A stretch of DNA of 64,000 nucleotides. Origin: an uncultured delta proteobacterium (lineage in GTDB: Bacteria > Desulfobacterota > Binatia > UBA9968). Below are positions 8,128 through 61,074 of this stretch, piece by piece; position 1 is the stretch's first letter; every line of letters starts with the position of its first letter. The translations under genes and the position numbers were made by a program. The notes below the pieces were generated by a model. That model had not been told where the DNA came from. It ran no database searches and saw only the letters and a program-made list of their open reading frames with translations. The stretch covers positions 1,056,001 to 1,120,000 of the forward strand of contig CAVUZH010000003.1 in the NCBI GenBank assembly GCA_963745835.1, given 5' to 3'.

Positions 8128-8130
8128 TTC

Positions 8131-42624: not shown

Positions 42625-43677
42625 TCAATTTGCCGCTAATGGATACATTCTTTTGGGATTCTGCGTCATGATCTTTTGCTTGGTTTCCATCGCGAGGTCC
42701 TCACGAGCGACAAATTTGCTGATATTTTCCCTGAATTCCGAGCGCGGTTCGTGAGGAAAGTCAGTCGCGCAGAAAAGGATATCGTCGCGGAGAAGCTCGA
42801 CGATTCTCGGAATGCCGAGTTCCTCGAGTTCGCAATGGATAAATATGCGGCCGCTCTTTAGATGTTCCGAGGGAGTAATCTTAAGCTCGGGAACCTGCGC
42901 GCTACGGTGTTCGTATTCCAGGTCCATGCGTTCCATCAGATATGGCACCCAACCGCAACCAGCCTCAGCGAACGCCACCTTTAGCTTGGGAAATTTGTCA
43001 AAAATGCCGCCATAGATCATCCCCGTCATTTGAATCATCTGGCCGAAGCCGTGACTCAAGGTGCGAACCTCGATCAAACGGTCGAAGGCGTCCACGCCAA
43101 TGCCTTGCGTCGGAGCGGCATGAACAGCCAGGAGCGCGCCCAACTCTTGGGCCGCCTCATAGACCGGAAAGTATCTCTCGTCACCGAAGGGCTGCCTCAT
43201 TCCGACTGCCGGGAGAATCGCGCCTACCATGTTGAGTTCCTTGACCGCTCGCCGTAGCTCTTTGACCGCCTCCGGTATGGATTGCAGCGGAATCAGAGCC
43301 ATGCCGCGAAGCCGCTTTTCCTGCTTTAAGAATACTTCGGAAAGATAATTGTTATAGCCTTGGGCGATCGCACAAGCCCAGTCCTTGTCCCGGATCAATC
43401 CAAAAGTAAGCCCGGCGGTGGGATACAGCACCGACCATTCGATCTCATCTTCATCTAGAAAATCCTTCCATTCCTTGAGCGATCCCTGCGCCACATAGCG
43501 GCCTTTGCCATCGACGACGCGCAAAGCCTGACGGTGAAATCCATCCAAGGTCGGGAAGAACGGGAACGACAAGAGATCCTCCCTGCCCTTGTAAGGCGGC
43601 GGCAAAAAATCTAACAAAGCCCGATCATTTTCCACCACATGTCCGTCAGCATCGATAAATCCTTTAACCTTAGTCAT
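42625..43677 (-). CDS. Amidohydrolase_2 family protein
   Basis: IDADGH, LYPT, AVH, EAGCGW, ATDFPH. Confidence 0.92.
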   Translation of the reverse strand: MTKVKGFIDADGHVVENDRALLDFLPPPYKGREDLLSFPFFPTLDGFHRQALRVVDGKGRYVAQGSLKEWKDFLDEDEIEWSVLYPTAGLTFGLIRDKDWACAIAQGYNNYLSEVFLKQEKRLRGMALIPLQSIPEAVKELRRAVKELNMVGAILPAVGMRQPFGDERYFPVYEAAQELGALLAVHAAPTQGIGVDAFDRLIEVRTLSHGFGQMIQMTGMIYGGIFDKFPKLKVAFAEAGCGWVPYLMERMDLEYEHRSAQVPELKITPSEHLKSGRIFIHCELEELGIPRIVELLRDDILFCATDFPHEPRSEFRENISKFVAREDLAMETKQKIMTQNPKRMYPLAAN

Positions 43678-43897: not shown

Positions 43898-45469
43898 TCA
43901 CCGATCATTTAAGATCATTTTGTGCGACAAAAACTCGCTGACCACATCTTTCGCCTGCCGCTGATCGCCATCGACAGCATAGTTGAGCTCACGCATCTCC
44001 TCGACGTTCAGAATTCCGCCCAGCTGTTTTAGGACTTCTCTTATCTCAGGATGATTCTCCAAAGCCTTCTGCCGCACGACCGGTACCGCATCATAAGGAG
44101 GAAAGTAGTGCAGATCGTCCTCGAGTTGCACCAGGCCGTATCGGCTGATCAGGCCGTCGGTCGAATTCCCGGCAATCAGATCCACTTGCCTCTCCGATAG
44201 AGCGCGATAGGTCAAGGACAGGTCCATTTCACGAATTTCCTTGAATTGAAAACCATAGGTCCGCGCAAAGCCTGGATAACCGTCAGGCCGTGACATGAAA
44301 TCCTGACCGAATCCGGCGCGCCATTGTGTTGACATCCGTGCCGCGTCAGTAATCGTCTTGAGATTATGGCGTCGTGCTTCATCGCCTCGAACCAGGATCG
44401 CAAAGGTATTGTTGAAGCCAAGCGGTTCGGTCCATTCGATGCCGAACTGTTCGACGTAAGACGATTTGACCTGGCGATACACCTCTGCCGGATCCTTAAT
44501 CGCCGGATTTTTTAAGATCGCCAGCAGAGCAGTACCGGTGTATTCGACATAAACATCAATCTCGCCGGCGATCATCGCCTGATGAGCCAGATTTCCGCCC
44601 AGATCGAATCGGCGCTCTACTTGGAGGCCGGTTTTGGCTTCAATCGCCTGCGCCAGCAATTCACCCATAATGATCTGTTCGGTAAAGTCTTTTGAGCCAA
44701 CAGCGATGCGGCTGGCACTGTAACCTCGCAGAAAACTGACAGTGCCAACCGCTATCAGGATGAGGGCTGTCACCAGTGCCGGCCACAAAAGCTTGCGAAT
44801 TTTGTGACTTGCCGCGCCGCGAAAACGGATTGCGCGCTCCAAAAATCCAAGAAACAAATCGGCAACCAGGGCAATCAAAGCAGCCGGAACTGCTCCCGCC
44901 AGAATCAACACGTTGTCATTCGCTCTTAAGCCGCGGAAAATGTATCGTCCCAATCCGCCGGCATCGATGGCGGCTGCGATGGTTGCCGTGCCGACGCAGA
45001 TAACGGTGGCGACGCGCACGCCGGCGATAATGACGCCGAGCGCTAGTGGCAGTTCAACTTGAAGGAGCAGCTGCCGATCAGTCATCCCCATGCCGCGGCC
45101 GGCCTCCCGAATAGCCGGATCGACGCCGCTGATTCCGGTAAAAGTATTTCTAATGATCGGCAGCAGCGAGTATAAAACCAGCGCGGCAATGGCGGTGCGG
45201 GCGCCGATACCGCCGACTATACGCACATCAAAAAGAATCAGGTTGACCGGTATCAGAAAGCCAAAAAGCGCCAAGCTCGGAACGGTTTGCATGATGTTGG
45301 CAAAGCCCAAGACGGGCTTGCTCAACGCCGGTTTACGCGTAAGGAGAATGCCGAGTGGCACACCGATCAGGAGCGCAATACCGATTGAAACGCCGACTAG
45401 AAACAGATGCTCAAAGATCAGTGCAGCCAGTTCAGCCCGGTGCTCGGCGAAAAAACGCAGCAGGCTCAT
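43898..45469 (-). CDS. Fused permease/substrate-binding subunit of a quaternary-amine ABC importer (OpuBD/EgtU-like)
   Basis: QTVPSLAL, EAGRGMGM, GGLG; SBP motifs GSKDFTEQ, EYTGT, LGFNNT, FPPY; ATGA overlap with the ATPase. Confidence 0.9.
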   Translation of the reverse strand: MSLLRFFAEHRAELAALIFEHLFLVGVSIGIALLIGVPLGILLTRKPALSKPVLGFANIMQTVPSLALFGFLIPVNLILFDVRIVGGIGARTAIAALVLYSLLPIIRNTFTGISGVDPAIREAGRGMGMTDRQLLLQVELPLALGVIIAGVRVATVICVGTATIAAAIDAGGLGRYIFRGLRANDNVLILAGAVPAALIALVADLFLGFLERAIRFRGAASHKIRKLLWPALVTALILIAVGTVSFLRGYSASRIAVGSKDFTEQIIMGELLAQAIEAKTGLQVERRFDLGGNLAHQAMIAGEIDVYVEYTGTALLAILKNPAIKDPAEVYRQVKSSYVEQFGIEWTEPLGFNNTFAILVRGDEARRHNLKTITDAARMSTQWRAGFGQDFMSRPDGYPGFARTYGFQFKEIREMDLSLTYRALSERQVDLIAGNSTDGLISRYGLVQLEDDLHYFPPYDAVPVVRQKALENHPEIREVLKQLGGILNVEEMRELNYAVDGDQRQAKDVVSEFLSHKMILNDR

Positions 45470-46233
45470 GAACAGCTCTGCGCCTTTCCGGTATCGCGAA
45501 AACATTGAACAAAAGCCCGAGCCTCAGGATGATTCGAAGCAAGAAGCTCGGCAGGCGGTCCCAAAACGATCATCTCGCCATCCTTGAGTAAGCCGATGCG
45601 CGTTGCCAGGGCGAAAGCTTCGTCCACGTCATGAGTGACGAAAACCATGGTCTTGCCCAGCTGTTTTTGCAGTGAGCGAAACTCTTGTTGGATTTCGCGG
45701 CGCGTAATCGGGTCCAAAGCACCGAAGGGCTCATCTAGAAGGATCATCGGCGGATCTGCCGCCAACGCACGTGCCACCCCGACCCTTTGTCGCTGGCCAC
45801 CGGAAAGTTCCGCCGGATAACGGGCGGCGAATCTGTCAGGCTCCAAACCCACCATCGCTAACAGTTCCCGAGCACGGTTTCTAATTTTATCGGCCGGCCA
45901 ACTTTCAAGTCTGGGTACCAGCCCAATATTCTCTTCAATGGTTAGATGAGGAAATAAGCCAATCTCCTGAATAACGTACCCGATCCGTCGCCGTAAAATT
46001 ATGGGATCCCAAGCTTCTGTTGAGATTCCCTCGACCCTCACTTCGCCGGAAGTCGGCGCAAGTAGACGGTTAATCATCTTCATGGTGGTTGTTTTACCCG
46101 AGCCGCTACGGCCGAGAAGCACCACTGTTTCGCCCCGGTCTATCCTAAGGTTGAGATCAACGAGAAGTTTTTTCCCTTCCGCGATCTCAAAGCTTACGTT
46201 GTTGAATTCGATAGCTACTCGATTGTCGATCAT
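45466..46233 (-). CDS. ABC ATPase (OpuBA/EgtV-like)
   Basis: GRSGSGKT, GYVIQEIGLFPH, LSGGQ, DEPFGALDP. Confidence 0.93.
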   Translation of the reverse strand: MIDNRVAIEFNNVSFEIAEGKKLLVDLNLRIDRGETVVLLGRSGSGKTTTMKMINRLLAPTSGEVRVEGISTEAWDPIILRRRIGYVIQEIGLFPHLTIEENIGLVPRLESWPADKIRNRARELLAMVGLEPDRFAARYPAELSGGQRQRVGVARALAADPPMILLDEPFGALDPITRREIQQEFRSLQKQLGKTMVFVTHDVDEAFALATRIGLLKDGEMIVLGPPAELLASNHPEARAFVQCFRDTGKAQSCS

Positions 46234-46290: not shown

Positions 46291-47319
46291 ATGGAAACAG
46301 AGCCGCTGCCTTCGATCCTTGCGCCGCATCAGAAGGCGCGATGGAAAACCAATCAGGATGGTATCTGGACCTTGGACGGCTCCCGCGTAGATGAGGTCCC
46401 AGCCCGTTCGATTTTGACAACCTTGTGGGATCAGCCGCGCTGGTTGGAGGCCTACCACTTATACGATCAACGAGGCTCCGAGCTTTTCGAACAGATTTGT
46501 CAGCTGCCGGAGTATTATCTGACTCGTACAGAAAATAGCATTCTCGAAGCGCAAGCCGCCGCTATCATCGCCGCCGCGCCGGTAGAATGCATTGTCGAAC
46601 TAGGCGCAGGCTATAGCAAGAAGACGATTCATTTGCTTACCGAACAGCTGCGGCAGCGCGACAAAGGGATCTTCGCGCCCATCGATGTCAGCGAATCAGG
46701 ACTACTGGCCTCGCGAGAAGCGGTCGCCCGAGATTTTCCGCGATTAGAGTTTCACGGACTTCACGCTCGCTATGAGGACGGCTTTACCAGTATCGAGCAA
46801 GCCGTACCGACCCTGTTTGTGTTTCTCGGCAGCACTGTCGGCAACTTCAATCACTCTGACTTTCCACGTTTCTTTCGCGCGTTATCGGAAGCGATGGGAC
46901 CGAAGGATTATCTCCTGCTCGGCGCCGATCGTATTAAAGACACAACGCTTCTCGAGCAGGCTTACAACGATTCACAGGGACTGACCGCGCAGTTCATTCT
47001 GAACGTGTTTTGTCATATCAACGATCTGCTCGGGAGCAATTTTGACCTGGCAAAAATGCGCTATCACGCGCGCTTCAATTCGGAATGGCAGCAAATCGAA
47101 ATGTACGCCATAGCGGAGCAACGTCATCGAGTAAGCTTCCCTACAGTAGAAACATATTTCGAGTGGCAGAAAGACGAAAAAATTCTGGTGGAGATCAGCC
47201 GTAAGTTCGACCCGCAGCGGTTACAGGAACAGCTAAGGTTTTTCGATCTCCTACCGATCGAGCACTTCACCGATCGTAATCAATGGTTTTCCGTTCTGCT
47301 CTTCCGCAAGCAAGGCTGA
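46291..47319 (+). CDS. egtD: L-histidine N-alpha-trimethyltransferase (EgtD family)
   Basis: YDQRGSELFEQI..LPEYYLTRTE, VELGAG, FLGSTVGN, AYNDSQG, EISRKF. Confidence 0.88.
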   Translation: METEPLPSILAPHQKARWKTNQDGIWTLDGSRVDEVPARSILTTLWDQPRWLEAYHLYDQRGSELFEQICQLPEYYLTRTENSILEAQAAAIIAAAPVECIVELGAGYSKKTIHLLTEQLRQRDKGIFAPIDVSESGLLASREAVARDFPRLEFHGLHARYEDGFTSIEQAVPTLFVFLGSTVGNFNHSDFPRFFRALSEAMGPKDYLLLGADRIKDTTLLEQAYNDSQGLTAQFILNVFCHINDLLGSNFDLAKMRYHARFNSEWQQIEMYAIAEQRHRVSFPTVETYFEWQKDEKILVEISRKFDPQRLQEQLRFFDLLPIEHFTDRNQWFSVLLFRKQG

Positions 47320-47395: not shown

Positions 47396-48040
47396 TCAAG
47401 GCATTCCCAATAACGATCCCAGTGGTGAAATACTCAGCAACAGAACACTGCCGAAGACGGCAATGCCGCCGCCTGAGATGCGATGGATCCACCACAAAAG
47501 ACGCAAATTAAATCTGTCGCGAAACACCGTTAGGCCGAGAAACAATGCCACCCACCACGATGCCGAACCTACAAAGACGCCGGCGGCGAATAGCGCCGCG
47601 CCGCCATACTGGCCAATCATGCTCTGGGAATTCCAGGCGGCATAAATCGCGGCAAAAGACAGTATGGTCACGGGATTTGACAAGGTCAGAAGAAGGGTTG
47701 CCACGTACGTTCGCAGAAGCCCATTGATTCTCTTTGTTCGCGGCGGCGATTGTCCGGGACGCGTGCAGCAGATTTCGTAACCGAGATAACAAAGAAAAAG
47801 CCCGCCGACGAGTCGGAAAGCAAACTGGTGATCAACTAAGAACTGCGATACCAGCGAGATGCTCAGGGCCGCGATGCCTCCGGCCAAAGCATCAGCCGTG
47901 GCGATACCCAGGCCGGAAAAAAGGCCATACCATGGGCCTAGAGACAGCGCTCGATTGATGCACAACAGTCCGAGTGGGCCAACCGGTACTGCCACGACAA
48001 ATCCCATCATGGCGCCTTTGATGAGAAGATGAATTGCCAT
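47396..48040 (-). CDS. LysE family translocator
   Basis: PVGPLGLLCI, GLGIATAD, LTLSNP, GSASWW. Confidence 0.9.
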   Translation of the reverse strand: MAIHLLIKGAMMGFVVAVPVGPLGLLCINRALSLGPWYGLFSGLGIATADALAGGIAALSISLVSQFLVDHQFAFRLVGGLFLCYLGYEICCTRPGQSPPRTKRINGLLRTYVATLLLTLSNPVTILSFAAIYAAWNSQSMIGQYGGAALFAAGVFVGSASWWVALFLGLTVFRDRFNLRLLWWIHRISGGGIAVFGSVLLLSISPLGSLLGMP

Positions 48041-48056
48041 TCCTGCCGTCGGAACT

Positions 48057-48878
48057 TTAACTTTTTGAGCGCGCGCAGCGAAAGCCGATATTGTGATGAC
48101 CCGAACGGAAATTCCGTGAGACATGAGCGCCTCGATGGGTCGTCGTCAACTCTTCGGCTGCCGAATCCTGACCGCCTCCTCTGGTGACGCGTACGAGGTC
48201 CCGCTGCAACTCTTCACGGCCGTCAGCGGCATTATAGGGATAAGGAAGATACGCGCTGCTCACCCATTCCCAACCGTTGCCCGCGAGATCGAGCACGCCA
48301 TAGGGGCTTGCTCCTTTCGGCAAGCTCCCCACAGGACGGAAGTCATTCCATCCTGCGCTGAAATGCGCCCGGGTGCGATCGGGCGGATCATTGCCCCAGG
48401 GAAATTTTCGCCCGTCTATGCCGCGCGCCGATTTCTCCCATTCCGCTTCAGTCGGCAATCGTTTACCTGACCAATCGCAGTACGCTGCCGCGCCGAACCA
48501 CGAGGCCTCGATTACCGGGTGGTTCTCAAAGCCGGGATCAGACTGCCATTTACCGGCGCGAAGGTGAATGCGCGCGTCGTTATCATCGCTATCGTACCAC
48601 CGTTCGGCAGCTGCACCTCGAACGCCTTTGGCCTCGAGGAACTTGGCAAACTGCGAATTCGTCACCGGTAAACGATCGATGAAAAATTCCGGCAAATCAA
48701 TCCGGTGCTGTGGCCGCTCGTCGGCGGGCCCGTCGTCTCTGCCCATTGAAAATGGCCCGGCAGGGATTCTTCTCATGTCAGCGCCATCGTTTGCATCGGC
48801 GCCGGTCGTTTGCGCGATACAGGCGGTCAATAATACGACCGAAAGTAAACCCCTCCGCCCAAGAAGAAAACGGCTCAT
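48057..48878 (-). CDS. Exported FGE-sulfatase (SUMF1/PvdO-like) domain protein
   Basis: FSMG, VTN, RLPTEAEWEK, DLAGNGWEW, GFRC; N-terminal RRGLL and LTAC lipobox-like signal. Confidence 0.88.
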   Translation of the reverse strand: MSRFLLGRRGLLSVVLLTACIAQTTGADANDGADMRRIPAGPFSMGRDDGPADERPQHRIDLPEFFIDRLPVTNSQFAKFLEAKGVRGAAAERWYDSDDNDARIHLRAGKWQSDPGFENHPVIEASWFGAAAYCDWSGKRLPTEAEWEKSARGIDGRKFPWGNDPPDRTRAHFSAGWNDFRPVGSLPKGASPYGVLDLAGNGWEWVSSAYLPYPYNAADGREELQRDLVRVTRGGGQDSAAEELTTTHRGAHVSRNFRSGHHNIGFRCARSKS

Positions 48879-48973: not shown

Positions 48974-50119
48974 ATGCGCAACTCGCAATCGTTTCGCCGC
49001 CGCGGTGTTGTCGAAGGATTCTTCGGCCCGGTGTGGAGCATGGCCCATCGCCGCCGCCTATTCGAGTTCGGCGCCGCTCGGGGAATGAACACCTATCTCT
49101 ACGCGCCAAAGGACGATCCCTTCCATCGCGAACGCTGGATGGAACCTTATCCTGAGAAGGAATGGCAGGCGCTCTTGACTATCATTCGCGAAGCACGAAA
49201 GCGCCACATCGAGTTTGTTTATGGCTTTCATCCCGGCAAGGCACTTTTGTTTAGCGCCGAGCAACCGCTGCGCGTTCTGCTGTCGAAGGCGCAGCGTTTC
49301 TACGATGCGGGAGTCCGTACCTTCGCAGTGCTGTTCGACGATATCCCTTCTCGCCTGGAGCATGCCGCCGATCGCAAGCATTTCAACAACAGCTTGGCAC
49401 GAGCCGAAGGAAATTGGCTGGCAGAAATCATCGCTCGTCAGCCGCCTGCATGGTCCGACGTGGAGTGGTGGATCTGCCCTTCGTTTTATACCCCTGATCC
49501 ATTACTGGCGCGTGTGTTTGGCGCCTTTGAGCCGCATTTTTTGGAAAATCTAGCGAAGTACCTTCCGTCCAATGTCTCCTGCTGCTGGACCGGCCCTTCA
49601 GTGGTATCGACAAAGATAACCCTCGCGCACGTTAGAAAAATTGCCAAGCTCGTCGGTCGGCCGTTGATTCTCTGGGACAACTATCCGGTGAACGATCTTT
49701 CAATGAAGGACGAGCTTCACCTGGGTCCGTTGAAAAATCGTGACACGCATCTGCCGGAAATCGTTTACGGCTACCTCAACAATCCGTTAGTTCAAGAAGA
49801 ACTGAGCTTTATCCCTTTGGCCACCTGTTTTGATTATGCCTCAAACCCTCTGGCCTATAGAGCGGAAGAAAGTTGGAATGCGATCGTTACACGCTCTTTC
49901 GGTCAGCGCGAGAGCGCGCACTGGCGCGCCATTCGAGCCTTCTGCGAAAGAGTTCAGCGAACTAAACGATCAAAAGTTGCCTCGCGCATGCCGCGCAGAG
50001 AACTGGAAGCCTTGCAAGAGGCGTCAGAATATATAAGGGCACACCGTCAAGAAAGATGGGCCGTGGAAATCAAGCCATGGAAAGAACAGATCGAACGAGC
50101 GCTTAAAGCGCAGAAGTAG
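48974..50119 (+). CDS. GH84 O-GlcNAcase-like beta-N-acetylglucosaminidase (catalytic domain only, no signal peptide)
   Basis: GVVEGFFG..W, NTYLYAPKDDPFHR..W, catalytic VLFDDI, CP..Y, WTG, WDNYPVND, NP. Confidence 0.9.
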   Translation: MRNSQSFRRRGVVEGFFGPVWSMAHRRRLFEFGAARGMNTYLYAPKDDPFHRERWMEPYPEKEWQALLTIIREARKRHIEFVYGFHPGKALLFSAEQPLRVLLSKAQRFYDAGVRTFAVLFDDIPSRLEHAADRKHFNNSLARAEGNWLAEIIARQPPAWSDVEWWICPSFYTPDPLLARVFGAFEPHFLENLAKYLPSNVSCCWTGPSVVSTKITLAHVRKIAKLVGRPLILWDNYPVNDLSMKDELHLGPLKNRDTHLPEIVYGYLNNPLVQEELSFIPLATCFDYASNPLAYRAEESWNAIVTRSFGQRESAHWRAIRAFCERVQRTKRSKVASRMPRRELEALQEASEYIRAHRQERWAVEIKPWKEQIERALKAQK

Positions 50120-50183
50120 ATCGCTATAACTACAATTCGTCCGAATCTTGATCGCGCGCCGAGAGTAGCGTAAGTTTTTCAGA

Positions 50184-51614
50184 ATGATTGATCCCCATAT
50201 TACGGCGAGTTTGCGCGGCAGGCCACTTCCGGCAATGAATGGCGCTGAGCTGATTTCGCTGATGCGAGAGTATCGTTCCCGTACCCGAGAGTTGGTTGCA
50301 GATCTTGATGAGCGACAACTGATCGGGCCGCGTTTAGCAACGGTGAACCCGCCGTTATGGGAGATCGGCCACGTCGGGTGGTTTCAGGAGTTTTGGCTTT
50401 TGCGCCACCTGCGCCGGCAGAAGCCACTGCTTGAGAACGGTGATCAACTCTATAATTCCACGGATGTAGCTCATGATGTTCGCTGGGACCTTCTACTGCC
50501 TTCGCGCGATAATACCTGGCGCTATCTGGACGAAGTCTTGAACCGAGTCATCGAACCGATCGAAGGTAAGCATGATTTATCCGAGGAGGAGGTCTACTTT
50601 TACTCTCTGACCGCGTTTCATGAAGCCATGCACGCCGAAGCCTTGGCGTGCACAAGGCAAACCCACGGTTATCCCAAACCGAGCTTCCTGCCCGACCAGC
50701 GTATCGGCAAAAATCCATCTGATGATTTCCCAGGAGATGCAGATATTCCGGGCGGTGCATTCTTGATCGGTGCGGCGACTGACGGGCCGTTCGTTTTCGA
50801 CAACGAAAAATGGGCTCATGAGGTAGTTCTTCGGCCCTTCCGCATCTCGCGCGCGCCGGTGAGCAATAGAGAATTTCGAGAATTCGTCGAGGACGGCGGT
50901 TATGGCCAGCCAAACTGGTGGAGCGAAGAAGGCTGGCGCTGGCTGGAAACCGGCGGCGCGCCGCAGCTCGAGAATTCGTTCGCAAAATTCTTCAACAAGC
51001 CGATCAAGCAGTCGAGTCAAGCTATTGCCGGTAAAGAGAAACTTGATCATCCCATGTACTGGGACCGTGACCCTGATGGCCACTGGCAACAGCGGGTTTT
51101 TGATCGCTACGTTCCGCTGCATGACAATCTGCCGGTTGTGCATGTCAGTTGGTACGAAGCGGAAGCGTTTTGCGCTTGGGCCGGACGGCGTTTACCGAGC
51201 GAAGCAGAATGGGAAACTGCCGCATCGGCAGAACCAGCTTCCGACGGTTGCAGCTTGATCAACAAACGGCGTCGTTTTCCCTGGGGCGATACGCCACCAA
51301 CAAGTGCCCAGGCAAACCTTGACTGGCAGAACGGAATCGTTGAAATCAGCGCCCATGGAGCAGGCGACAGCGCGTTTGGTTGTCGTCAGATGATCGGCAA
51401 TGTCTGGGAGTGGACCGCTGACAACTTCATGCCGTATCCAGGATTTATCGCGGATCCTTATAAGGAATACTCGAAGCCGTGGTTCGGCACCCATAAGGTC
51501 CTGCGCGGCGGCTGCTGGGCGACCTCTTCGCGGCTCATTCGCAACACCTGGAGAAACTTCTACACGCCGGATCGTCGCGATGTTTTTTCCGGCTTTCGAA
51601 CATGCGCAAAGTGA
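50184..51614 (+). CDS. senA: Selenoneine synthase SenA (EgtB-like DinB plus FGE domains)
   Basis: NPPLWEIGHVGWFQEFW and FHEAMHAEA (SenA-type rather than EgtB HEQQHQE); FDNE, RLPSEAEWE, GNVWEW, WRNFY; 9 nt upstream of senB. Confidence 0.88.
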   Translation: MIDPHITASLRGRPLPAMNGAELISLMREYRSRTRELVADLDERQLIGPRLATVNPPLWEIGHVGWFQEFWLLRHLRRQKPLLENGDQLYNSTDVAHDVRWDLLLPSRDNTWRYLDEVLNRVIEPIEGKHDLSEEEVYFYSLTAFHEAMHAEALACTRQTHGYPKPSFLPDQRIGKNPSDDFPGDADIPGGAFLIGAATDGPFVFDNEKWAHEVVLRPFRISRAPVSNREFREFVEDGGYGQPNWWSEEGWRWLETGGAPQLENSFAKFFNKPIKQSSQAIAGKEKLDHPMYWDRDPDGHWQQRVFDRYVPLHDNLPVVHVSWYEAEAFCAWAGRRLPSEAEWETAASAEPASDGCSLINKRRRFPWGDTPPTSAQANLDWQNGIVEISAHGAGDSAFGCRQMIGNVWEWTADNFMPYPGFIADPYKEYSKPWFGTHKVLRGGCWATSSRLIRNTWRNFYTPDRRDVFSGFRTCAK

Positions 51615-51623
51615 TGCTCCAAC

Positions 51624-52574
51624 GTGAAAATCCAGCTCGTCACTCCGGCGCCGTTGCGCTTTAACAACGGCAACAAGATTACCGCCCTGCGGTGGGCGAA
51701 AATCCTTAGAACCCTCGGACACCGCGTAACGGTTTTGCAGCATTACGACGATAAGCCCTGCGATGCGCTGATTGCACTTCATGCGAGACGGAGCTATCAG
51801 TCGATCCGCCGTTTTCGCAAACTTCATCCCGAATTACCCTTGATCGTCGTCCTAACCGGCACGGACCTCTATCGCGATATCCGCAGCCACCGCAGTGCTC
51901 AACGGTCGCTCACGCTGGCGACGCGGATTGTCGCGTTGCAGAAGATGGCATTTTCCGAATTATCCGAATCCTTGCATCCAAAAACTCGGGTGATCTATCA
52001 GTCAGCCGAGCGCTGTTTGAGCCGTAATTCAAAAAATCGAGGAGATGGATTCAAAGTCTCAGTTATCGGTCACCTGAGAAACGAGAAGGACCCGCTGCGA
52101 ACCGCATTGGCGATCCGCCGTTTGCCGAAGCACTCGCGGATCGAGGTACAGCATATCGGCCGGGCGTTGGATAAAGACCTCGAGCGCCGGGCGCGAGCCG
52201 AAATGGCGAGAAACCCACGCTATCGGTGGATCGGAGAGTTGGCGCATAAAAGGACCCGGCAGATTCTAGCGCAAAGCGATGTAACGGTTATCACCTCGCG
52301 CATGGAAGGAAGCTCGAATGTGTTATCCGAAGCGCTCGCCTGCGCCGTGCCGGTTATCGCTTCGAGAATACCCGGATTGATGGGAACCCTAGGAACCGAT
52401 TACCCGGGCTATTTTGCCACGGGCGACACGGGTTCACTGAGAGAAATTCTATTCCGAGCCGAAAGCGATCGGGCCTTTTACCGATCGTTGCAATCAATTT
52501 GCAAGAGCTTATCACCCGTGGTGGCGCCCAAGCGAGAAGTGGCTGCTTGGAAACAACTTCTACAAGAGCTGTAA
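51624..52574 (+). CDS. senB: Selenosugar synthase SenB (glycosyltransferase)
   Basis: VTPA...GNKITALRW, ALHARRS, LTGTDLYRD, GHLRNEKDP, SRMEG. Confidence 0.92.
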   Translation: MKIQLVTPAPLRFNNGNKITALRWAKILRTLGHRVTVLQHYDDKPCDALIALHARRSYQSIRRFRKLHPELPLIVVLTGTDLYRDIRSHRSAQRSLTLATRIVALQKMAFSELSESLHPKTRVIYQSAERCLSRNSKNRGDGFKVSVIGHLRNEKDPLRTALAIRRLPKHSRIEVQHIGRALDKDLERRARAEMARNPRYRWIGELAHKRTRQILAQSDVTVITSRMEGSSNVLSEALACAVPVIASRIPGLMGTLGTDYPGYFATGDTGSLREILFRAESDRAFYRSLQSICKSLSPVVAPKREVAAWKQLLQEL

Positions 52575-52585: not shown

Positions 52586-53842
52586 TCAAGATTGCGAAGG
52601 CTCCTCGCGTATCCAGGGTTTCACCCAGGGCAAGAGCAGATAAGCGGGCATAGATAACAAAAAAGTTAAGGCGAAATAGTTGCCATAGCCATAATGCTCT
52701 GCGCCAAGCCCGCTAATCCCGCCGATCAAGCGTCCGGTCAGCGAGAAGATCGAAGAAAGAAAGGCATACTGCACGGTTGCATGCTCTTTTTGACAGATGT
52801 TCATGAGAAAGGCCAGGAATGCCGCCGTTCCCAGGCCGCCGCTAAACGACTCGAACATCGATGCGCTATAGAGGCCGTACCTTCCAAGACTTAACCATTC
52901 GACGGCCGAATAACCCAGATTGGAAAACGCCTGCAGTAAACCCAATAACCACACTGCATGAAAGATTCCGTAACGCGTGATAAAGGCGCCTCCGGCTAAT
53001 GCTCCAGCTATGCTGAGAACGATGCCAAAGCTGGTGGGAAACAGTCCGATTTGAAACATGAGATCTTCCTGCAGCGGCCAAATCGATTTACCGTAATCCA
53101 CCCAGAACGGTTTGACCATCGGGCCGATGGCAAACTCGCCCAGCTTATACGTCAACACGAAAGCCACAAGAGGAATTACCCGCCAAGTCCCGGCCCATCC
53201 GATAAAGCCTCGCCACCAATGCTGGCGCGCTTCCTCGGGCAGATGAAGCCGCGGAATCAGGAGCGCACACAATCCCAGAACAATGAATAGCGCTCCCGCC
53301 AGGTTGAATAAAAGGCTCCAGCGCAGCGCTGCGGCGAGAAACACCAGACCACCACCGACGAATACCAAAGCCACTCGGTAGGCGGAAGCGCGCACGCCGT
53401 TGGCGGGCCCCTCCTCCTCCCGAGCAATCAGCCCGACTGAATAAGAATCAATGGCAACGTCTTGCGTCGCCGACAAGGTCGTAAAAGCGAGTACCAGAAC
53501 GAGAACGAGCAAGCCGACACCGGCAACGTCTACCCACGGCAGCGCAAACAACATCGCTGCGATGCCGAGCATACAACCCAGTACCCACATGCGGCGATCG
53601 CCGTGTCGATGCACCAGCGGCGACCAGATTACTTTTAAAGAATACGGCAGTTCCAGCAGCCGCAAGCCGCCGATGGCGCGCAGCGAAACGCCGTGCAGCC
53701 GAAAGTAAACCGGCAGCACTTCCCAGAGAATAGCCGCGGGCGCGCCCTGAATGAAGTAGAGCAGCGCGACCACACCCAGTTTGTTCTTGGTTTCTGGCGC
53801 CGCCCGACTTACGCCGAGGCATTTCCACATCAGTTCCTGCAT
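52586..53842 (-). CDS. AmpG-like MFS permease
   Basis: LYFIQG, PYSLKVIWSP, SATQDVAIDSY, YKLGE, GLGTAA, ATVQYA. Confidence 0.88.
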   Translation of the reverse strand: MQELMWKCLGVSRAAPETKNKLGVVALLYFIQGAPAAILWEVLPVYFRLHGVSLRAIGGLRLLELPYSLKVIWSPLVHRHGDRRMWVLGCMLGIAAMLFALPWVDVAGVGLLVLVLVLAFTTLSATQDVAIDSYSVGLIAREEEGPANGVRASAYRVALVFVGGGLVFLAAALRWSLLFNLAGALFIVLGLCALLIPRLHLPEEARQHWWRGFIGWAGTWRVIPLVAFVLTYKLGEFAIGPMVKPFWVDYGKSIWPLQEDLMFQIGLFPTSFGIVLSIAGALAGGAFITRYGIFHAVWLLGLLQAFSNLGYSAVEWLSLGRYGLYSASMFESFSGGLGTAAFLAFLMNICQKEHATVQYAFLSSIFSLTGRLIGGISGLGAEHYGYGNYFALTFLLSMPAYLLLPWVKPWIREEPSQS

Positions 53843-54899: not shown

Positions 54900-55442
54900 A
54901 TGATGCGCCTAAAAAACATTTTATTGCCAACCGACTTTTCGCAACGTTCCAAACGATCCTTGCGCTATGCCCTGTCTCTGGCGACGGAATACAGCGCAAC
55001 GGTCACCGTGGTGCATGTGGCCAATGAGTTGAATTCCTGGGAGCTCTACTGCGATGAGTTCAGTTTCAGGATTCCAGGCGAAAGAGCCTGGCCCGTTGAC
55101 CGGGTAGTGGCGGAAGCACGCCTCGAGCTGAGCAATTTTCTTGAACCTTATAGCGATACGATCAAGAGACTTCCTGCGCTCTCCAAGCGCATAGGTTTAG
55201 GTCCGATTGCGGATGAAATCGTTAGTGCTGCGGAAGATCTGCAGGCCGATTTGATTGTCATGTCACCGCGCCGGCTTAGAGGTCTGAAACGGATTCTAAC
55301 CCCCAGCATCACCGATCAGGTTATGCGAATAAGTCCGTGTCCGGTTTTGTCTGTCATAGATCCCCTTCCCTCCCATCCATGGCGAGGGAAGGGGATAACT
55401 AGACTATGCGCCTGGCCAAAACCAAGGTTCGCCAGTGTTTGA
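54900..55442 (+). CDS. Universal stress protein
   Basis: ILLPTDFS, VHV, ADLIVM, SPCPVL. Confidence 0.92.
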   Translation: MMRLKNILLPTDFSQRSKRSLRYALSLATEYSATVTVVHVANELNSWELYCDEFSFRIPGERAWPVDRVVAEARLELSNFLEPYSDTIKRLPALSKRIGLGPIADEIVSAAEDLQADLIVMSPRRLRGLKRILTPSITDQVMRISPCPVLSVIDPLPSHPWRGKGITRLCAWPKPRFASV

Positions 55443-55459
55443 CCAAAACGGAGGAGAGC

Positions 55460-56047
55460 TTGCTCAACTATCATAACGGGCGGACGATCAGGCAGTCTCG
55501 TCGTTTCACTCTGGAGGAGGAGTTACTGCGATTATGGCAACACTTCGATGCGTTGACGTTCTTCAACCGGGTCATGGACCTGTTTTTCAAGCTACTGATC
55601 TTCTTCGTTGTCGTTGTTCTCGGTATGGGACTCGTCAGGCTGTTCTGGGAGACCTGGAGGATCATGGCAGTCAGCGAACTGAAAGACGCTTTCAGTTTTA
55701 CGGTCACCAACCTGCTGACATTTTTCATAATCCTGGAGCTGTTTAAAAGCCTGGTGGAATATTTTCGCGAGCACCGTCTTAGACTGACGTTTATTGTCGA
55801 TGCTACCTTGGTATTCATACTGCGCGAGGTCATGATCAGTCTCTACCAACATCAAAGCCCGCCACTGTTGATTACAGCGCTCGCGTTCCTGGCGCTCGTA
55901 CTCGGCGTGTTGCGGACTTTAGCGATTGTCTATTCCCCAATGGAACGAAATATGGTCGAGCATCTCGTCGAGAGTAAGCACCATGCGCAGCATTCCGAGG
56001 AGAAGATAGCCGGACGTTCGGAAACGGCGAGCCTTTTCGCCTTCTAA
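55460..56047 (+). CDS. PsiE family membrane protein
   Basis: LTFFIILELFKS..EYF, DATLVFILRE; TTG start after GGAGGAG. Confidence 0.82.
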   Translation: MLNYHNGRTIRQSRRFTLEEELLRLWQHFDALTFFNRVMDLFFKLLIFFVVVVLGMGLVRLFWETWRIMAVSELKDAFSFTVTNLLTFFIILELFKSLVEYFREHRLRLTFIVDATLVFILREVMISLYQHQSPPLLITALAFLALVLGVLRTLAIVYSPMERNMVEHLVESKHHAQHSEEKIAGRSETASLFAF

Positions 56048-56439
56048 ATAACACGGAGAATAATAATGATGCCCGCGCCTTTTATCGAACTGGAAGTCCA
56101 ATATGTTGACAAAGCTTCATTTGATCGATCGTTGGCCGCGATGTCCAAGTTGGCACACGAGTTGATCGATCAACTGAATATCATTTGACTTTGCTTTGGA
56201 CCCGGCGATTTCCTACAGTTGGTACCGAGCCTCTCCAAACGTGTTTCGCGAAACAGTCATGAACTTAGCGGGGCCATGAAGAACACACGCTGCGGCACCT
56301 GTACTATAAAGAGCGGGCTTGAGCAGAATGGCTCTATTGCTTCAGATATAATCTTCGAGTTTAGCATGATCGCGTTAATTTGTTTGATTGTTCGCTCCCT
56401 AGAAGGAGAAGCCCTCCTAGGGAGCTTGCGTTTCTCGGA

Positions 56440-58395
56440 TTAGGTGCCGATCTGACCGCCATCATCCTTGGTAATCACAATACACGCCGAGCGCGGACGT
56501 CCGCCCGCATCCCCATCGGGCCACGAGCTGAACCGCTTCGGATTGGCCGGATCGTTGGGCGACTCGTCGGCAGTCTCGCCGGGGTGCTGAATGCCGACGA
56601 ACATGGTGCGTTCGTCAGGCGTGACGAATACGCCGGTAACCTCGCACTGCTGCGGGCCGACAAGAAAACGGCGGACCTCGCCGGTTTGCGGATTGGAGCA
56701 GAGCATCTGATTGTTGCCGAATCCGGCGTAGTCGCCGGTGTTGATGGTCGAGGTTGATACATCCGTCTGAATCCAGAGCCTGCCGCTCGGCGCCACGTAA
56801 ATACCGTCGGGGGAACCGAACTTGTCGCCTTCAACGTCCGAGCCGTGCGCCGGCACCGCCGGGTCACCGGCGAGCATGAAAATCTCCCACTCGAACGTCG
56901 GCTCGGTCCAGTCCTTTCGGTACTTCCACGTAACGATGTGACCGTACACGTTGTTGGGCCGCGGATTGATGGCATCCACCGGCGGGCGGGCCGAACCCGC
57001 CAGAGTGGTGCCATCCGGATTGTTTACCGAAACCGGAGTAGTGCCGCGCCGGTTGTTATTGGTAAGCGTGCCGATAGCAGTGAGCGCGTGGGGAAAAGTA
57101 TCGATCCACTCAGGGCGATCCATCATTGTGGCGCCGACCGCATCGGCCGCGCCTCGGGTATTGAGCAGAATGTCGTTCAGTGACCAAGCAGCCAGCGCCG
57201 GATTGGCCGGGGTCAGCGGCAGCCATTCGCCAAAGCCGCTGTCATGAAACTTGGCGACATAAAGAACCCCATCGTCAAGCGGATTGATCCCCTGCCGCCG
57301 CGCCCTGCGCCAGGGCAGGTTCGAGACATAACGATAGATGTACTCGTTGCGCTCGTCGTCGCCCATGTAAACGACGATTCTGCCGTCGTTCGCCTCTTGT
57401 ACCCAGGCGCCCTCGTGCTTTAAGCGCCCGAGCGCGGTGCGCTTAACCGGCGTCGATTTGGGATCGAACGGATCGATCTCGACCACCCAGCCAAACCGGT
57501 TCGGCTCGTTGGGCTCGAGATCGGCGTTGAATCTGGGATGGGTGGTGTGCCAGCGTAACCCCGAACTGGAGGGAGAGATGCCGTATCGCAATTCCAGCGG
57601 CGTCCTGTTGGGAAGAGTCTTTTGAAAGAAACCGTGGAAATTTTCCTCGCAGCTGAGAAAAGTTCCCCAGGGCGTAAAGCCCATGGCGCAGTTGTTCACC
57701 GTACCGAATACGATGCTGCCGGTCGGATCCGCGCTCGTTTTTAATCGCTCATCTCCGGCCGCCGGGCCGCCGATAGCAATCGGCGTCTGGGCGGTGATAC
57801 GCCGCCCGTATCTTGACGGACGTACCACTTGCCACTTGCCGCCTTGGTTGATGATCTCGATGATCGCGATACCATGGGCGTTGAGCGATTTGTTGGTCTT
57901 TTCTTCATTCCAGTTGGCGATGCCATCTGAAAACAGTAGTCCATCGTCGGTGTACTCATTGTTTTGCACGAGCAGGCCATGCGCCGATCCCCTGATTGGG
58001 AAGTACACCACGCCGTCATTGTGCATGCCCCATTGCTGCGCCTGGTCGGCAGCGCTGTTGCTGCCATCCTGCTTGAACTCCGGGCCATTGGAGACCGGAT
58101 CGCCCCATGCGACGAGAACTCGCGCGCTGTATCCCGGGGGCACTACGACGGTATCTGCATCAGAAACCGGCACGCCTCGAAAGCCCAGCAATGGTCGAAG
58201 CGAGCCCTGGCCGATATCTTGGGCCGAGGCCGGAACAGATCGCAGCAGAGCATTAACACCGCTGAAAGAAACTGCCGCAGCCGCAGCAAGACCGCCGCCG
58301 AGAAAGCCCCGTCGAGATAGGCGGGCTTCGACAATGTCTTGGAAACTCCGGTTGCCAGAATTGTTACTTACCTCATCGTCATCGATTTTAGCCAT
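56440..58395 (-). CDS. phoX: PhoX family alkaline phosphatase (Tat-exported)
   Basis: SRRGFL, HNDG, NNEY, NNCA.G.TPWGT.LSCEEN, GRLKHE, DRPEW, SPDG, CEVTG, QHPG. Confidence 0.95.
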   Translation of the reverse strand: MAKIDDDEVSNNSGNRSFQDIVEARLSRRGFLGGGLAAAAAVSFSGVNALLRSVPASAQDIGQGSLRPLLGFRGVPVSDADTVVVPPGYSARVLVAWGDPVSNGPEFKQDGSNSAADQAQQWGMHNDGVVYFPIRGSAHGLLVQNNEYTDDGLLFSDGIANWNEEKTNKSLNAHGIAIIEIINQGGKWQVVRPSRYGRRITAQTPIAIGGPAAGDERLKTSADPTGSIVFGTVNNCAMGFTPWGTFLSCEENFHGFFQKTLPNRTPLELRYGISPSSSGLRWHTTHPRFNADLEPNEPNRFGWVVEIDPFDPKSTPVKRTALGRLKHEGAWVQEANDGRIVVYMGDDERNEYIYRYVSNLPWRRARRQGINPLDDGVLYVAKFHDSGFGEWLPLTPANPALAAWSLNDILLNTRGAADAVGATMMDRPEWIDTFPHALTAIGTLTNNNRRGTTPVSVNNPDGTTLAGSARPPVDAINPRPNNVYGHIVTWKYRKDWTEPTFEWEIFMLAGDPAVPAHGSDVEGDKFGSPDGIYVAPSGRLWIQTDVSTSTINTGDYAGFGNNQMLCSNPQTGEVRRFLVGPQQCEVTGVFVTPDERTMFVGIQHPGETADESPNDPANPKRFSSWPDGDAGGRPRSACIVITKDDGGQIGT

Positions 58396-58599
58396 AGCCT
58401 CTCCTTTGTCGGATAGAATGGCTTTGGTTTTTATGCGCGAGAGGTTATGGCTTTGCTATGAAAGTATTAAATGTCGATGAACGTTCGCGTAAACAGACTG
58501 ACAGAATCACTGCCGTGTAGCGGTGCGGAAGAACGCGAGGTAATCTTACGAAGGCCTTAAGGCGAGGGAGATTTCGTCTTGGTTGAGATAAGACGGAGA

Positions 58600-59508
58600 C
58601 TACTTAACGGTCAATAACGCTTCTTTTGCTTCGTCGAGTTGCTTGAGTTCCTCTTTGCTTAGTTTTGGATACTTCAAATCGAGCGATGCGAGAAGGTCCA
58701 CCAGAGCAGCCGCAACGATGAGGTGAGTAAACCACTTGTTATCTGCCGGCACGATGTACCACGGCGCTTCTTCTGTCGCGGTGTGCCCAATCATGTCCTC
58801 GTATGCCTGCATGTAGTCGTCCCAGTGTTGGCGTTCATGGACGTCATTCACTGAAAACTTCCAGTTCTTCTCCGGTTCATCGATCCGCTTCAGGAACCGT
58901 TTTTTCTGCTCTTTCTTAGACAGATGCAGAAAGAATTTGCGAATAACTATACCGTTGCGCGTCAGATAGCGCTCAAACTTTCGAATATCCTGGAATCGCT
59001 CTTTCCAGATATTCTTGGTGACAAGTTCAGACGGGAGCTTCTGCTTCTCCAACAACTCCGGATGAATCCGAACGATAAGCGTTTCTTCGTAGTAGCTGCG
59101 ATTGAATAGCCCGATCATGCCCCGCTCCGGCAAACGTCTCGCGCAGCGCCACAGGTAATCGTGATCGAGATCCTCACTGCTTGGCGCTTTGAAGGAGTGA
59201 ACCTGACAGCCCTGGGGATTGACGCCTGACATGACATGCTTAATGGCGCTGTCCTTGCCTGCCGTATCCATCGCCTGAAAGATAGCCAGCACAGCCCAAC
59301 GGTTCTGTGCATAGAGTATCTCCTGGAACTTGGCCAACGCTTGAACTCCGGCGACTAGGTTTTCCTTAACCCGCGGTTTGTCCTCTGATTTAAAGTCGAG
59401 TGTGTCGGCAGGGTCAAAATCCTTGAGACGAAAACTCTGACGATCCGTGACCCGAAAGGCTTTGATCAGCTCTCTTGCGCTCTCTATTAGTGTATCTATT
59501 TCCATCAT
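58600..59508 (-). CDS. ppk2: Polyphosphate kinase 2 family (class III-like)
   Basis: QAMDTAGKD, GVNPQG, FKAPS, HDYLWR, FNRSYYE, KNWKF, PADNKW. Confidence 0.95.
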   Translation of the reverse strand: MMEIDTLIESARELIKAFRVTDRQSFRLKDFDPADTLDFKSEDKPRVKENLVAGVQALAKFQEILYAQNRWAVLAIFQAMDTAGKDSAIKHVMSGVNPQGCQVHSFKAPSSEDLDHDYLWRCARRLPERGMIGLFNRSYYEETLIVRIHPELLEKQKLPSELVTKNIWKERFQDIRKFERYLTRNGIVIRKFFLHLSKKEQKKRFLKRIDEPEKNWKFSVNDVHERQHWDDYMQAYEDMIGHTATEEAPWYIVPADNKWFTHLIVAAALVDLLASLDLKYPKLSKEELKQLDEAKEALLTVK

Positions 59509-59899
59509 TCCGTCCTCGTTTAAGGTCTTAAAGCAGAAACTTTCACATGGTTGGTAGGGCTCTAATCGGTAATTCGTTTTACAAGCCGGCTGCTCGTAGA
59601 TCTACACTTCTCCCCGATCAGTGTTGATCGGAAGTTAAACTGCCCTTTTACCCGGAGGTTGCATTCGGAAGCGACATTCACGACGTGTTCAGTACATTGT
59701 TTGAGTAACACACTTATAAACATGGCGATACGCCACTCGACCGTTCGCCGACTGGATCACCTATTATCTCTGCTGCAAGAAACGGGAGCAGCCGCCATTG
59801 ATTGATCAACTCTCGCGAGGGCGCAATGATTCTCCAGCCTGCTTGGCTGGTGAACATGATGTCCAGTAGACGCCGTCCATGCACGGCATAAACCGGTTT

Positions 59900-60107
59900 T
59901 TCATGAGTACGATCCGCGGCTCCTGAGATGAAAGCGATCTTTTATGCCGCTGGACCATATTTCCAGCGAAAGACGATCAAGGAGGTGGAAAATATCGACG
60001 TTGCGCCGACCATTGCCGAGGTACTTGGCATCAATCCGCCGCAGGACGCGCAAGGAAGAAAGATTGACACCCGCGATAATGGCAATCGGGAATCCTTCTT
60101 TAGGTGA
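59900..60107 (+). pseudogene. C-terminal remnant of an alkaline-phosphatase-superfamily phosphodiesterase (NPP-like)
   Basis: Manual translation gives HEYDP, then MKAIFYAAGPYF...VENIDVAPTIAEVLGINPP..AQG (59928-60107). Absent from the ORF track; upstream region is broken. Confidence 0.75.
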
Positions 60108-60313
60108 GACAACGAGAGGACGGTTTGCGCTGCAGCGCACCTGACGAAAGACACCCTGCACAATATCTCCCGGATTTAGCGAAGCGCAGAGTCACCCGCG
60201 CATAACGGATAATTCCTATGCTTCCAGCTTGTGTCTAAGCGGCTTAGCACAATGGAGCTCGCAACAAAACTCAAGAACCGACCGCGAGCAGCGGCATGAT
60301 GCAAGAAGAACGC

Positions 60314-60850
60314 TTAAAACTCGTATAAGGTTGCCAATTGTCGCGTCAATCGCCTGCCTCTGTCGGATGAAAAATGCTCAATTTGCGGTGGGCACAAGGA
60401 GAGTACCGGACACGGAGCATTTGCGGTTACAACGTCGGAAATACTGCGTGCAAAAGTACGAGGCAAAACACCGCGTTTACGCTTCGCCATTACGATGCAA
60501 TCGGCTTCCTGTTGAACCGCCGCCACAACGATCTCCCGGGAAACCTTGCCGATGCTGGTGCGGATCGTCCAAGAGACGCCCGGAATGTTAGCCCTGAAAT
60601 GTGTCTGAACAAACATCTCCAATTCGGAAGTGGCAACCTTTAGGAGATGTTCCACGACAAGTTGTGAACGCCATTGTTCCACCGGTACTTCGTCAAGTCG
60701 GCAAGACGCCATTTTTTGCCATGGAAATTGGATGACATGAAGAAAAACCAGCTCCGCCTTGTGCTCTCGTCCTAATGAAAGAGCATAGGCCATTCCGGTT
60801 TTGGCATTTTCGGAACGATCGGTCGGGCAGAGGATTTTTTTGATTAACAT
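60314..60850 (-). CDS. Universal stress protein
   Basis: ILCPTD, FLHV, ADCIVM, APCPVL. Confidence 0.9.
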   Translation of the reverse strand: MLIKKILCPTDRSENAKTGMAYALSLGREHKAELVFLHVIQFPWQKMASCRLDEVPVEQWRSQLVVEHLLKVATSELEMFVQTHFRANIPGVSWTIRTSIGKVSREIVVAAVQQEADCIVMAKRKRGVLPRTFARSISDVVTANAPCPVLSLCPPQIEHFSSDRGRRLTRQLATLYEF

Positions 60851-61074
60851 AGTATTTCCCTTCTTCGTACAAGCAGACGTCTATAGGTTTGTAGGTCGCA
60901 TGCACATCGATCTCACAGCTCAATCGTAAGCAGTCTGCTGGAAGGAAGTTAAAGGAAAAAGTCAATATGATGAAGCTCTTGTAAAGCGACGAACTTTCCC
61001 CAAATCGGCTATGGACAAGCTGCGTGCTTATTATCTCAGCAGCACTGGAAGTAAAATAAAAGCCGCGGCAACCA

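Follow-up and report, generated by a model that had tools for sequence, protein, structure and literature searches.

A GH84 glycoside hydrolase gene kept beside senA and senB in Binatia suggests an additional, sugar-directed step in selenoneine biosynthesis

The 64,000-nt stretch of DNA analysed here (the window) comes from an uncultured soil bacterium (delta proteobacterium) of the class Binatia (assembly GCA_963745835.1, contig CAVUZH010000003.1, positions 1,056,001–1,120,000). It carries a row of three genes in which a predicted cytoplasmic β-N-acetylglucosaminidase of glycoside hydrolase family 84 (GH84) precedes senA, encoding selenoneine synthase, and senB, encoding the synthase of the selenosugar 1-seleno-β-N-acetylglucosamine (SeGlcNAc). 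The arrangement, found again in 64 of 80 related loci, is far beyond chance and suggests that the selenium-carrying sugar is removed or recycled in a step not yet described. GH84 is not essential to the pathway and would be an accessory for yield or selenium economy. On balance it is probable that N-acetylglucosamine (GlcNAc) acts as a recyclable selenium carrier, that this GH84 subfamily is specialised in removing it, the first natural enzyme of that kind, either as a Se-glycosidase or as a hydratase of 2-acetamidoglucal, and that the last step to selenoneine is here enzymatic and selenium-sparing.

SelD makes selenophosphate and EgtD makes hercynine. SenB forms SeGlcNAc from UDP-GlcNAc and selenophosphate, and SenA couples it to hercynine; the selenoxide product of SenA was not seen, and a spontaneous internal elimination to selenoneine was proposed, while SenA reactions containing dithiothreitol yielded detectable hercynyl-SeGlcNAc, the reduced selenoether (bioRxiv 10.1101/2022.04.13.486033; text available in part). 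The canonical pathway as given in the original prediction, made from the window sequence, agrees with this preprint by Kayrouz. As described in 2022, the pathway has three enzymes and an enzyme-free last step, to which GH84 would, if the proposed role is true, add a fourth activity, either a Se-glycosidase, of which it would be the first natural example, or an enzyme for the glycal by-product, to which none has been assigned before. It would then be known how cells keep trace selenium out of dead-end sugar adducts, or how they clear an inhibitory by-product, and GH84 could raise yields in engineered selenoneine production.

The published cluster search, which asked for co-localised egtB, TIGR04348 and selD, returned 827 clusters (bioRxiv 10.1101/2022.04.13.486033) and would miss the GH84 variant because co-localisation of selD was required. 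An unbiased tabulation of the neighbours of NHISS-family genes, to a distance of 5 kb (JACS 2026), contains egtD, senB (8.1%), senC (6.3%) and Opu-type ATP-binding cassette (ABC) transporters but no glycoside hydrolase. No report linking GH84 to selenoneine was found in the literature, where supplementary figures of the 2022 preprint and of the ovoselenol preprint might show such neighbourhoods, and a search combining selenoneine with glucosaminidase gave only unrelated mycology work. A sen cluster that lacks selD and has its own GH84 accessory is new in the sense that it was not found in print.

Features of the GH84-senA-senB row

GH84, senA and senB lie on one strand with spacers of 64 nt and then 9 nt (Table 1), their open reading frames (ORFs) falling exactly where the original prediction had placed them. 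SenA scores well above the cut-off of its own model (494.8 bits with NF041186, cut-off 420) and below that of the EgtB model (330.5 bits, cut-off 360), and SenB is a member of the TIGR04348 equivalog (397.9 bits, cut-off 300). At 476 aa, the window SenA exceeds the 382-position SenA model by ~90 residues, present as insertions. No terminator-like site was found on the + strand; a sigma-70 promoter scan gave 0 sites against 3.7 expected, a result that is uninformative for this lineage.

From its sequence, the GH84 protein is predicted to be a GlcNAc-specific hydrolase with a complete catalytic domain, the PF07555 match extending over residues 10–319 and profile positions 1–289 of 295 (271.5 bits, cut-off 25). 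The catalytic Asp-Asp pair noticed in the original prediction is found in the motif AVLFDDIPS (D122-D123), pairs with the catalytic Asp-Asp of both C. perfringens NagJ and the T. terrenum enzyme, and is invariant in 17 clade members. HMMER alignments to NagJ and to the T. terrenum enzyme also identified conserved YAPKDD, CPSFY, WDNYPVND and NNP motifs. D122 is presumably the residue that polarises the acetamido group and D123 the acid/base, these roles and those of the other motif residues being assumed from the GH84 literature. The best solved relative by sequence is the T. terrenum O-GlcNAcase (OGA; E 1.4e-68), and a structure predicted from the 17 clade members (pLDDT 81.5, pTM 0.82) has a (beta/alpha)8 barrel followed by C-terminal helices, with T. 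terrenum O-GlcNAc hydrolase 5DIY as the top Foldseek match (TM 0.83) and GH84 structures as all remaining matches. The protein is not a member of the NCBIfam GlcNAcase equivalog NF041654, a long secreted type (188 bits, far under the cut-off of 1000), which it matches in the catalytic part only (model positions 144–423 of 732).

The absence of a signal peptide and of carbohydrate-binding modules, also part of the original prediction, was borne out: a signal peptide would not fit, as the PF07555 domain begins at residue 10 and the frame stays open for no more than 388 codons, against 381 in the ORF itself, and no second domain or carbohydrate-binding module was found in a domain scan. The enzyme is thus predicted to be cytoplasmic.

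Conservation of GH84 with sen genes in related loci

A database search with GH84 at a threshold of E ≤ 1e-10 gave 1,685 relatives. The 120 best of these are all ~380 aa and at least 63% identical; named sources among these 120 are Candidatus Binatia or ‘Deltaproteobacteria’ metagenome-assembled genomes (MAGs). A scan of one genome per species gave 80 loci with GH84 57–96% identical to that of the window, and these loci were searched by tblastn with the window proteins. Where senA is present downstream on the same strand (the 64 loci mentioned above), the distance from GH84 to the SenA match is ≤200 nt in 38 loci, 201–1000 nt in 15 and longer in 11, and senB lies within 10 kb of GH84 in 61/80. 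At least 3 kb of downstream sequence is available for a set of loci that also numbers 64: 52 of these have senA and senB, five senB only, one senA only (near a contig end) and six neither, so that the linkage of close GH84 homologs to senAB, on which the original prediction depended, is the prevailing state. The long gaps between GH84 and sen genes are filled by unrelated inserted genes (in L042, glyoxalase-type, NMT1-like and alpha/beta-hydrolase genes), adjacency being kept despite insertions of up to 3 kb. An EgtD homolog was found within 10 kb in 25/80 loci and selD in none of the 80 over the same distance.

GH84 tracks senB more faithfully than senA, since the GH84-senB pair is kept where senA has relocated. 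In four loci (L041, L044, L046 and L051) GH84 is followed directly by senB, without senA at the locus, and a SenA above cut-off is encoded elsewhere in each of these genomes, as it is in that of L032. The latter (a Burkholderiales-labelled MAG; 6699–11143) is a second, differently built GH84/senB neighbourhood, with senB 2.3 kb from GH84 and senA on another contig. Here one strand carries senB and an ArsR-rhodanese regulator gene, and the other a fatty-acid-hydroxylase-family gene, a rhodanese gene, a SemiSWEET-like ORF (a weak match of 18.4 bits, under the cut-off) and the sen-type GH84. A further variant is seen in 16/80 loci (L067, L069–L076, L078–L084), in which an Amidohydro_2 gene directly upstream of GH84 on the same strand (~8840–9990; 2120–3241 in L080) gives a four-gene row, amidohydrolase-GH84-senA-senB. 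These 16 copies are 91–100% identical to the L069 copy, and the Amidohydro_2 protein of the window is only 29% identical to them.

Distribution in the class and in Burkholderiales

Phylum-level samples were too sparse to be of use (SenB in 2/301 and 1/201 genomes, centre genome included), and 301 genomes of the window's class were searched for SenB and GH84 and the coordinates compared. SenB was identified in 58 and GH84 in 88. In 44 of the 58 SenB-positive genomes the starts of senB and GH84 are 1,235–5,250 bp apart on the same contig (21/26 in the window's family, 20/20 in a second and 3/3 in a third family, all of one order); in the window's family the five exceptions come from fragmented assemblies that either lack the genes or have them at or close to contig ends. 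The nine SenB-positive genomes of other families carry divergent senB/senA pairs or senA-senB-egtD rows (one with selD beside senA), with no GH84 in six and a divergent GH84 on another contig in three.

GH84 without SenB was seen in 39 class genomes (one count from the unpublished genome G683; in G597 the contig ends just past senA). Eight of 38 other class GH84 genes were fetched and are 31–36% identical to the window GH84, with no sen genes within 6 kb; seven of the eight proteins are 475–623 aa long, some with hydrophobic N-termini. As these other genes are divergent, mostly longer and unlinked, the sen-linked GH84 constitutes a distinct subfamily. In a quick tree of 83 GH84 sequences, a very long branch splits the sen-linked proteins from the single outgroup (36% identical). 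Five GH84 proteins labelled Betaproteobacteria or Burkholderiales form one well-supported clade nested among Binatia-labelled ones, which fits one transfer. Verrucomicrobiia-, Chloroflexota- and Udaeobacter-labelled GH84 are near-identical or close to Binatia-labelled ones (L016/L019, L038, L049), which suggests mis-binning or mislabelling of MAGs rather than wide spread. In a sample of 401 genomes of the order to which the L032 genome is assigned, Burkholderiales, GH84 was found in 2 and SenB above cut-off in 136 (including the unpublished G831, G1099, G1184 and G1010).

Selenium supply and other GlcNAc-active enzymes in the genome

The lack of an adjacent selD, stated in the original prediction, holds for the whole window; the only selD above cut-off in this genome (97.1% complete) is on another contig (C22:69235–70161; the window is on C3). 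This gene has one in-frame TGA at the active-site Cys/Sec position (...KAAG*AAKLGP...), and selenocysteine is probably a component of SelD itself. In 5/5 complete related genomes tested (L095–L099), selD is likewise unlinked and has a single in-frame TGA. The in-frame TGA implies that these bacteria make selenoproteins, and the unlinked selD of this and the related genomes implies that selenophosphate is available in trans, so that the cluster need not be a sulfur variant. No EgtB above cut-off was found anywhere in the genome, and egtD therefore most simply feeds SenA. An EgtB/SenA-like stretch at C14:474946–475977 (173.7 bits to the EgtB model), broken by four stop codons, is probably a decayed NHISS gene.

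Other GlcNAc-active candidates in the genome comprise one NagZ-like GH3; no GH20 match and no second GH84 were found, nor any PF13844 match indicating a GT41 O-GlcNAc transferase (OGT), leaving the OGT half of an OGT plus OGA system without a candidate at this completeness. Because no GT41 was found and a separate NagZ-like GH3 is present, the two usual jobs of such a GlcNAcase have no clear need of GH84, and peptidoglycan-recycling and O-GlcNAc-cycling roles of GH84 are ranked low.

Proposed role of GH84 and alternative explanations

It is quite possible, if a little short of probable, that GH84 hydrolyses the beta-GlcNAc–Se bond made by SenB, i.e. that it is a Se-glycosidase. The pathway holds three GlcNAc-derived species open to its action, and which of them it uses we can only infer. 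In the proposed scheme, selenophosphate from the unlinked SelD would be used by SenB to make SeGlcNAc, EgtD would supply hercynine, and SenA would join the two as the hercynyl-SeGlcNAc selenoxide, which could either eliminate spontaneously to selenoneine or be reduced by thiols to the stable selenoether. GH84 would then cleave the anomeric C–Se bond by the substrate-assisted mechanism usual in its family, in which D122 would polarise the acetamido group and D123 serve as acid/base. Hydrolysis of the selenoether would give selenoneine and GlcNAc, leaving no scarce selenium trapped. This reduced selenoether is tentatively favoured as the substrate, given the scarcity of selenium and the likelihood that, in a cytoplasm rich in thiols, some of the selenoxide ends up in this dead end. 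Action on free SeGlcNAc instead, returning selenide to the pool, would fit the tighter linkage to senB and the rhodanese context of L032 and is considered rather improbable, as a hydrolase of free SeGlcNAc in one putative operon with the SeGlcNAc synthase would make a futile cycle.

Several other observations weigh against a Se-glycosidase. Selenoneine forms without a glycosidase in vitro and in canonical producers (bioRxiv 10.1101/2022.04.13.486033), and human OGA does not hydrolyse a Cys-S-GlcNAc peptide (source available in part), which implies that cleavage at selenium would depend on the leaving group. If the SenA product were the substrate, tighter linkage to senA would be predicted, and the reverse is seen. 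Six of the 64 loci with sufficient downstream sequence have GH84 in unrelated contexts with no sen genes nearby, the six SenB- and SenA-positive genomes of the same class noted above have no GH84, and GH84 was absent from 134 of the 136 SenB-positive Burkholderiales genomes. Absence from most SenB-positive genomes means that GH84 is dispensable for the pathway at large. The 44 adjacent cases, being confined to three families of one order, are in addition largely explained by a single ancestral juxtaposition followed by inheritance, and their number reflects maintenance rather than repeated invention; maintenance of the GH84-senB pair where senA has moved is informative all the same. The interpretation put forward in the original prediction is accordingly modified: the linkage is real, but GH84 is dispensable in most sen clusters and its steadiest partner is senB rather than senA; a choice limited to Se- or S-GlcNAc species was moreover incomplete, as 2-acetamidoglucal, a documented by-product, is an equally natural substrate.

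The main rival, a doubtful but still substantial possibility, is that GH84 hydrates 2-acetamidoglucal, released stoichiometrically when the SenA selenoxide eliminates, back to GlcNAc, through protonation of the enamide, formation of an oxazoline and its hydrolysis; the carrier would be recycled and a potential inhibitor of hexosaminidases or epimerases removed. Glycals are hydrated by retaining glycosidases, and hexosaminidases either turn over N-acetyl glycals slowly or bind them tightly. This precedent comes from general background, since no link of 2-acetamidoglucal to hexosaminidases was found in the literature, the glycal papers listed being concerned with epimerases or ovoselenol. In ovoselenol biosynthesis the sugar was observed to leave as 2-acetamidoglucal, in a reaction described as analogous to that of SenA (bioRxiv 10.1101/2024.04.10.588772; text available in part). 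A role directed at the sugar would explain both why GH84 follows senB whichever NHISS gene is near and why all GlcNAc-binding residues are retained, but selenium is a trace element and salvage of carbon a weak selective force, most sen-bearing genomes do without GH84, and this genome already has the NagZ-like GH3. It is unlikely that GH84 has no part in selenoneine chemistry and is a general cytoplasmic GlcNAcase, e.g. for GlcNAc compounds imported by the neighbouring AmpG-like permease, that became fixed beside senAB in one ancestor. Such inherited synteny would account for the restriction of 44/44 adjacent cases to one order and for the six loci with GH84 in unrelated contexts, and the sole AmpG-family gene of the genome adjoins senB; SenB in 4/6 Burkholderiales-labelled genomes with sen-type GH84 is not compelling against a 34% background (136/401). 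However, loci whose GH84 is only 57% identical still show the adjacency, which has outlasted insertions and the loss of senA from the locus, and the AmpG-like gene is convergent with senB, outside the putative GH84 operon, and missing from 16 loci of the f99-type clade and several others that keep GH84-senA-senB. The NagZ-like GH3 elsewhere in the genome, the distinctness of the sen-linked subfamily from the unlinked GH84 genes of the class, and the second GH84/senB neighbourhood in L032 also argue against it.

A sulfur route, in which SenA and SenB make a hercynyl-S-GlcNAc sulfoxide that does not eliminate spontaneously and GH84 cleaves it to give ergothioneine from a selD-less cluster, is very unlikely. 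Neither 1-thio-GlcNAc nor thiophosphate has a biological source known to us. SenA converts thioglucose to a sulfoxide that is stable and does not go on to ergothioneine, so that a cleaving enzyme would be needed, but thioglucose is a very poor SenA substrate (bioRxiv 10.1101/2022.04.13.486033). The absence of selD from all 80 loci and the presence of egtD in a genome with no EgtB above cut-off would suit this route; against these stand the unlinked selD of this genome and of all five complete relatives, which would make selenophosphate available, and the scores of SenA and SenB as equivalogs of the selenium enzymes. It is hardly credible that GH84 is an eraser of protein O-GlcNAc like T. terrenum OGA: that enzyme is its best solved match in both sequence and fold, but no GT41 transferase match accompanies it in the 97.1%-complete genome and its putative operon partners are small-molecule biosynthesis genes.

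Comparison with known systems

As in the senABC cluster of Variovorax paradoxus, senA and senB are neighbours on the same strand, the genome has a selenophosphate synthetase, and egtD is in the cluster too, which holds for a subset of the published ones. Unlike that cluster, senC/selD is found neither in the cluster nor in the window nor in the 80 loci, so the canonical three-gene organisation is lacking, and the cluster has an additional upstream GH84, a betaine-type importer, a LysE exporter, an exported FGE-domain protein and an AmpG-like permease. Bacterial GH84 O-GlcNAcases (5DIY, NagJ and BT_4395 of B. thetaiotaomicron) share the (beta/alpha)8 barrel with C-terminal helices, the Asp-Asp pair and the GlcNAc-binding motifs. 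The window GH84 differs in being only 26–32% identical to them in structure-based alignments, shorter and free of carbohydrate-binding or N-terminal domains, with no partner OGT in the genome and with selenometabolite genes in its putative operon.

The proposed scheme resembles in its logic that of mycobacterial EgtC and EgtE, where an iron enzyme joins a chalcogen donor to hercynine and separate enzymes then strip the carrier, although these are an amidohydrolase and a pyridoxal phosphate-dependent lyase acting on a Cys-derived sulfoxide, whereas here a glycoside hydrolase would act on a sugar–Se bond. Such a step has been thought unnecessary for selenoneine because the selenoxide eliminates by itself. 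In ovs clusters (senB/senC with OvsA and OvsM), SeGlcNAc is likewise the donor and 2-acetamidoglucal the by-product, and ovs genes can be chromosomally separated; they differ in having another NHISS, a methyltransferase and histidine rather than hercynine as acceptor, and the available part of the text mentions no glycosidase (bioRxiv 10.1101/2024.04.10.588772). An ovsA mutant accumulates SeGlcNAc (same source). In lincomycin biosynthesis, ergothioneine attached at an anomeric carbon is displaced enzymatically (JACS 2026).

Neighbouring genes and expression

Around the GH84-senA-senB row, the cluster also takes in egtD and genes for a betaine-type ABC importer, a LysE exporter and an AmpG-like permease (Table 1). 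The importer genes are divergent from egtD and could serve uptake of hercynine, ergothioneine or selenoneine; the best solved relatives of the OpuAC domain are choline, betaine and carnitine binders (E 1e-67 to 1e-49), with a weaker match to EgtUC (E 2e-42). The FGE-domain gene and the LysE gene form a divergent pair beside GH84. The former encodes an LLTAC lipobox-like signal at the N-terminus and has homologs at least 45% identical in 29/80 related loci; in L044, L046 and L051, where senA is absent, it directly adjoins GH84-senB. The LysE gene is kept beside the cluster in many related loci. The AmpG-like permease, the sole AmpG-family match in the genome, follows senB at its 3′ side in 33/80 loci and is the best-conserved cluster protein across loci (68–99% identity); it could serve as the housekeeping permease for muropeptides or instead transport GlcNAc conjugates. 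The Amidohydro_2 protein at the cluster edge is 94–99% identical in the nearest related loci.

Table 1 Features of the GH84-sen cluster in the window.
Feature	Position (nt)	Strand	Basis of assignment
Amidohydro_2 protein; cluster edge, association uncertain	42625..43677	-	PF04909, 94 bits
ABC permease fused to OpuAC-type quaternary-amine binding domain; EgtU-like architecture	43898..45505	-	BPD_transp_1 + OpuAC
ABC ATPase, betaine/proline/choline type; partner of the permease fusion	45466..46233	-	ABC_tran; TIGR01186 (proV), 278.9 bits, under cut-off 326.6
egtD, histidine N-alpha-trimethylase supplying hercynine	46291..47319	+	TIGR03438, 296.5 bits, cut-off 290.9
LysE-family exporter; downstream of FGE-domain gene	47396..48124	-	PF01810, 60 bits
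FGE-sulfatase-domain protein, exported, lipoprotein-like N-terminus; divergent from GH84	48057..48878	-	PF03781, 173 bits
GH84 beta-N-acetylglucosaminidase (predicted), short, cytoplasmic, 381 aa; first in row	48974..50119	+	PF07555, 271.5 bits
senA, selenoneine synthase, 476 aa; DinB_2 + FGE-sulfatase domains	50184..51614	+	NF041186, 494.8 bits
senB, selenosugar (SeGlcNAc) synthase, 316 aa; GTG start	51624..52574	+	TIGR04348, 397.9 bits
AmpG-family major facilitator superfamily permease; convergent with senB	52586..53842	-	TIGR00901, 241 bits, under cut-off 350

Separate studies of soil metatranscriptomes yielded short contigs, 90–99% alike, over GH84, senA, senB and neighbouring genes, which hints weakly at expression of the cluster genes in soil. 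GH84 is covered by contigs of the RNA libraries X15, X16 and X20, and the senA-senB junction is bridged by contigs in X16, X17 and X20; carry-over of DNA into the libraries is possible, contigs do not by themselves demonstrate one transcript, and gaps in coverage carry no weight. No contig bridging the GH84-senA junction was present among the RNA-library pieces listed, which are short.

Downstream of the cluster (54900–63847), the window carries phosphate and polyphosphate genes, including those for two Usp proteins, PsiE, PhoX (56440–58395) and PPK2 (58600–59508). The domains of PPK1 are split over two ORFs (62691–63332 and 63356–63847), which may reflect a frameshift or an assembly error.

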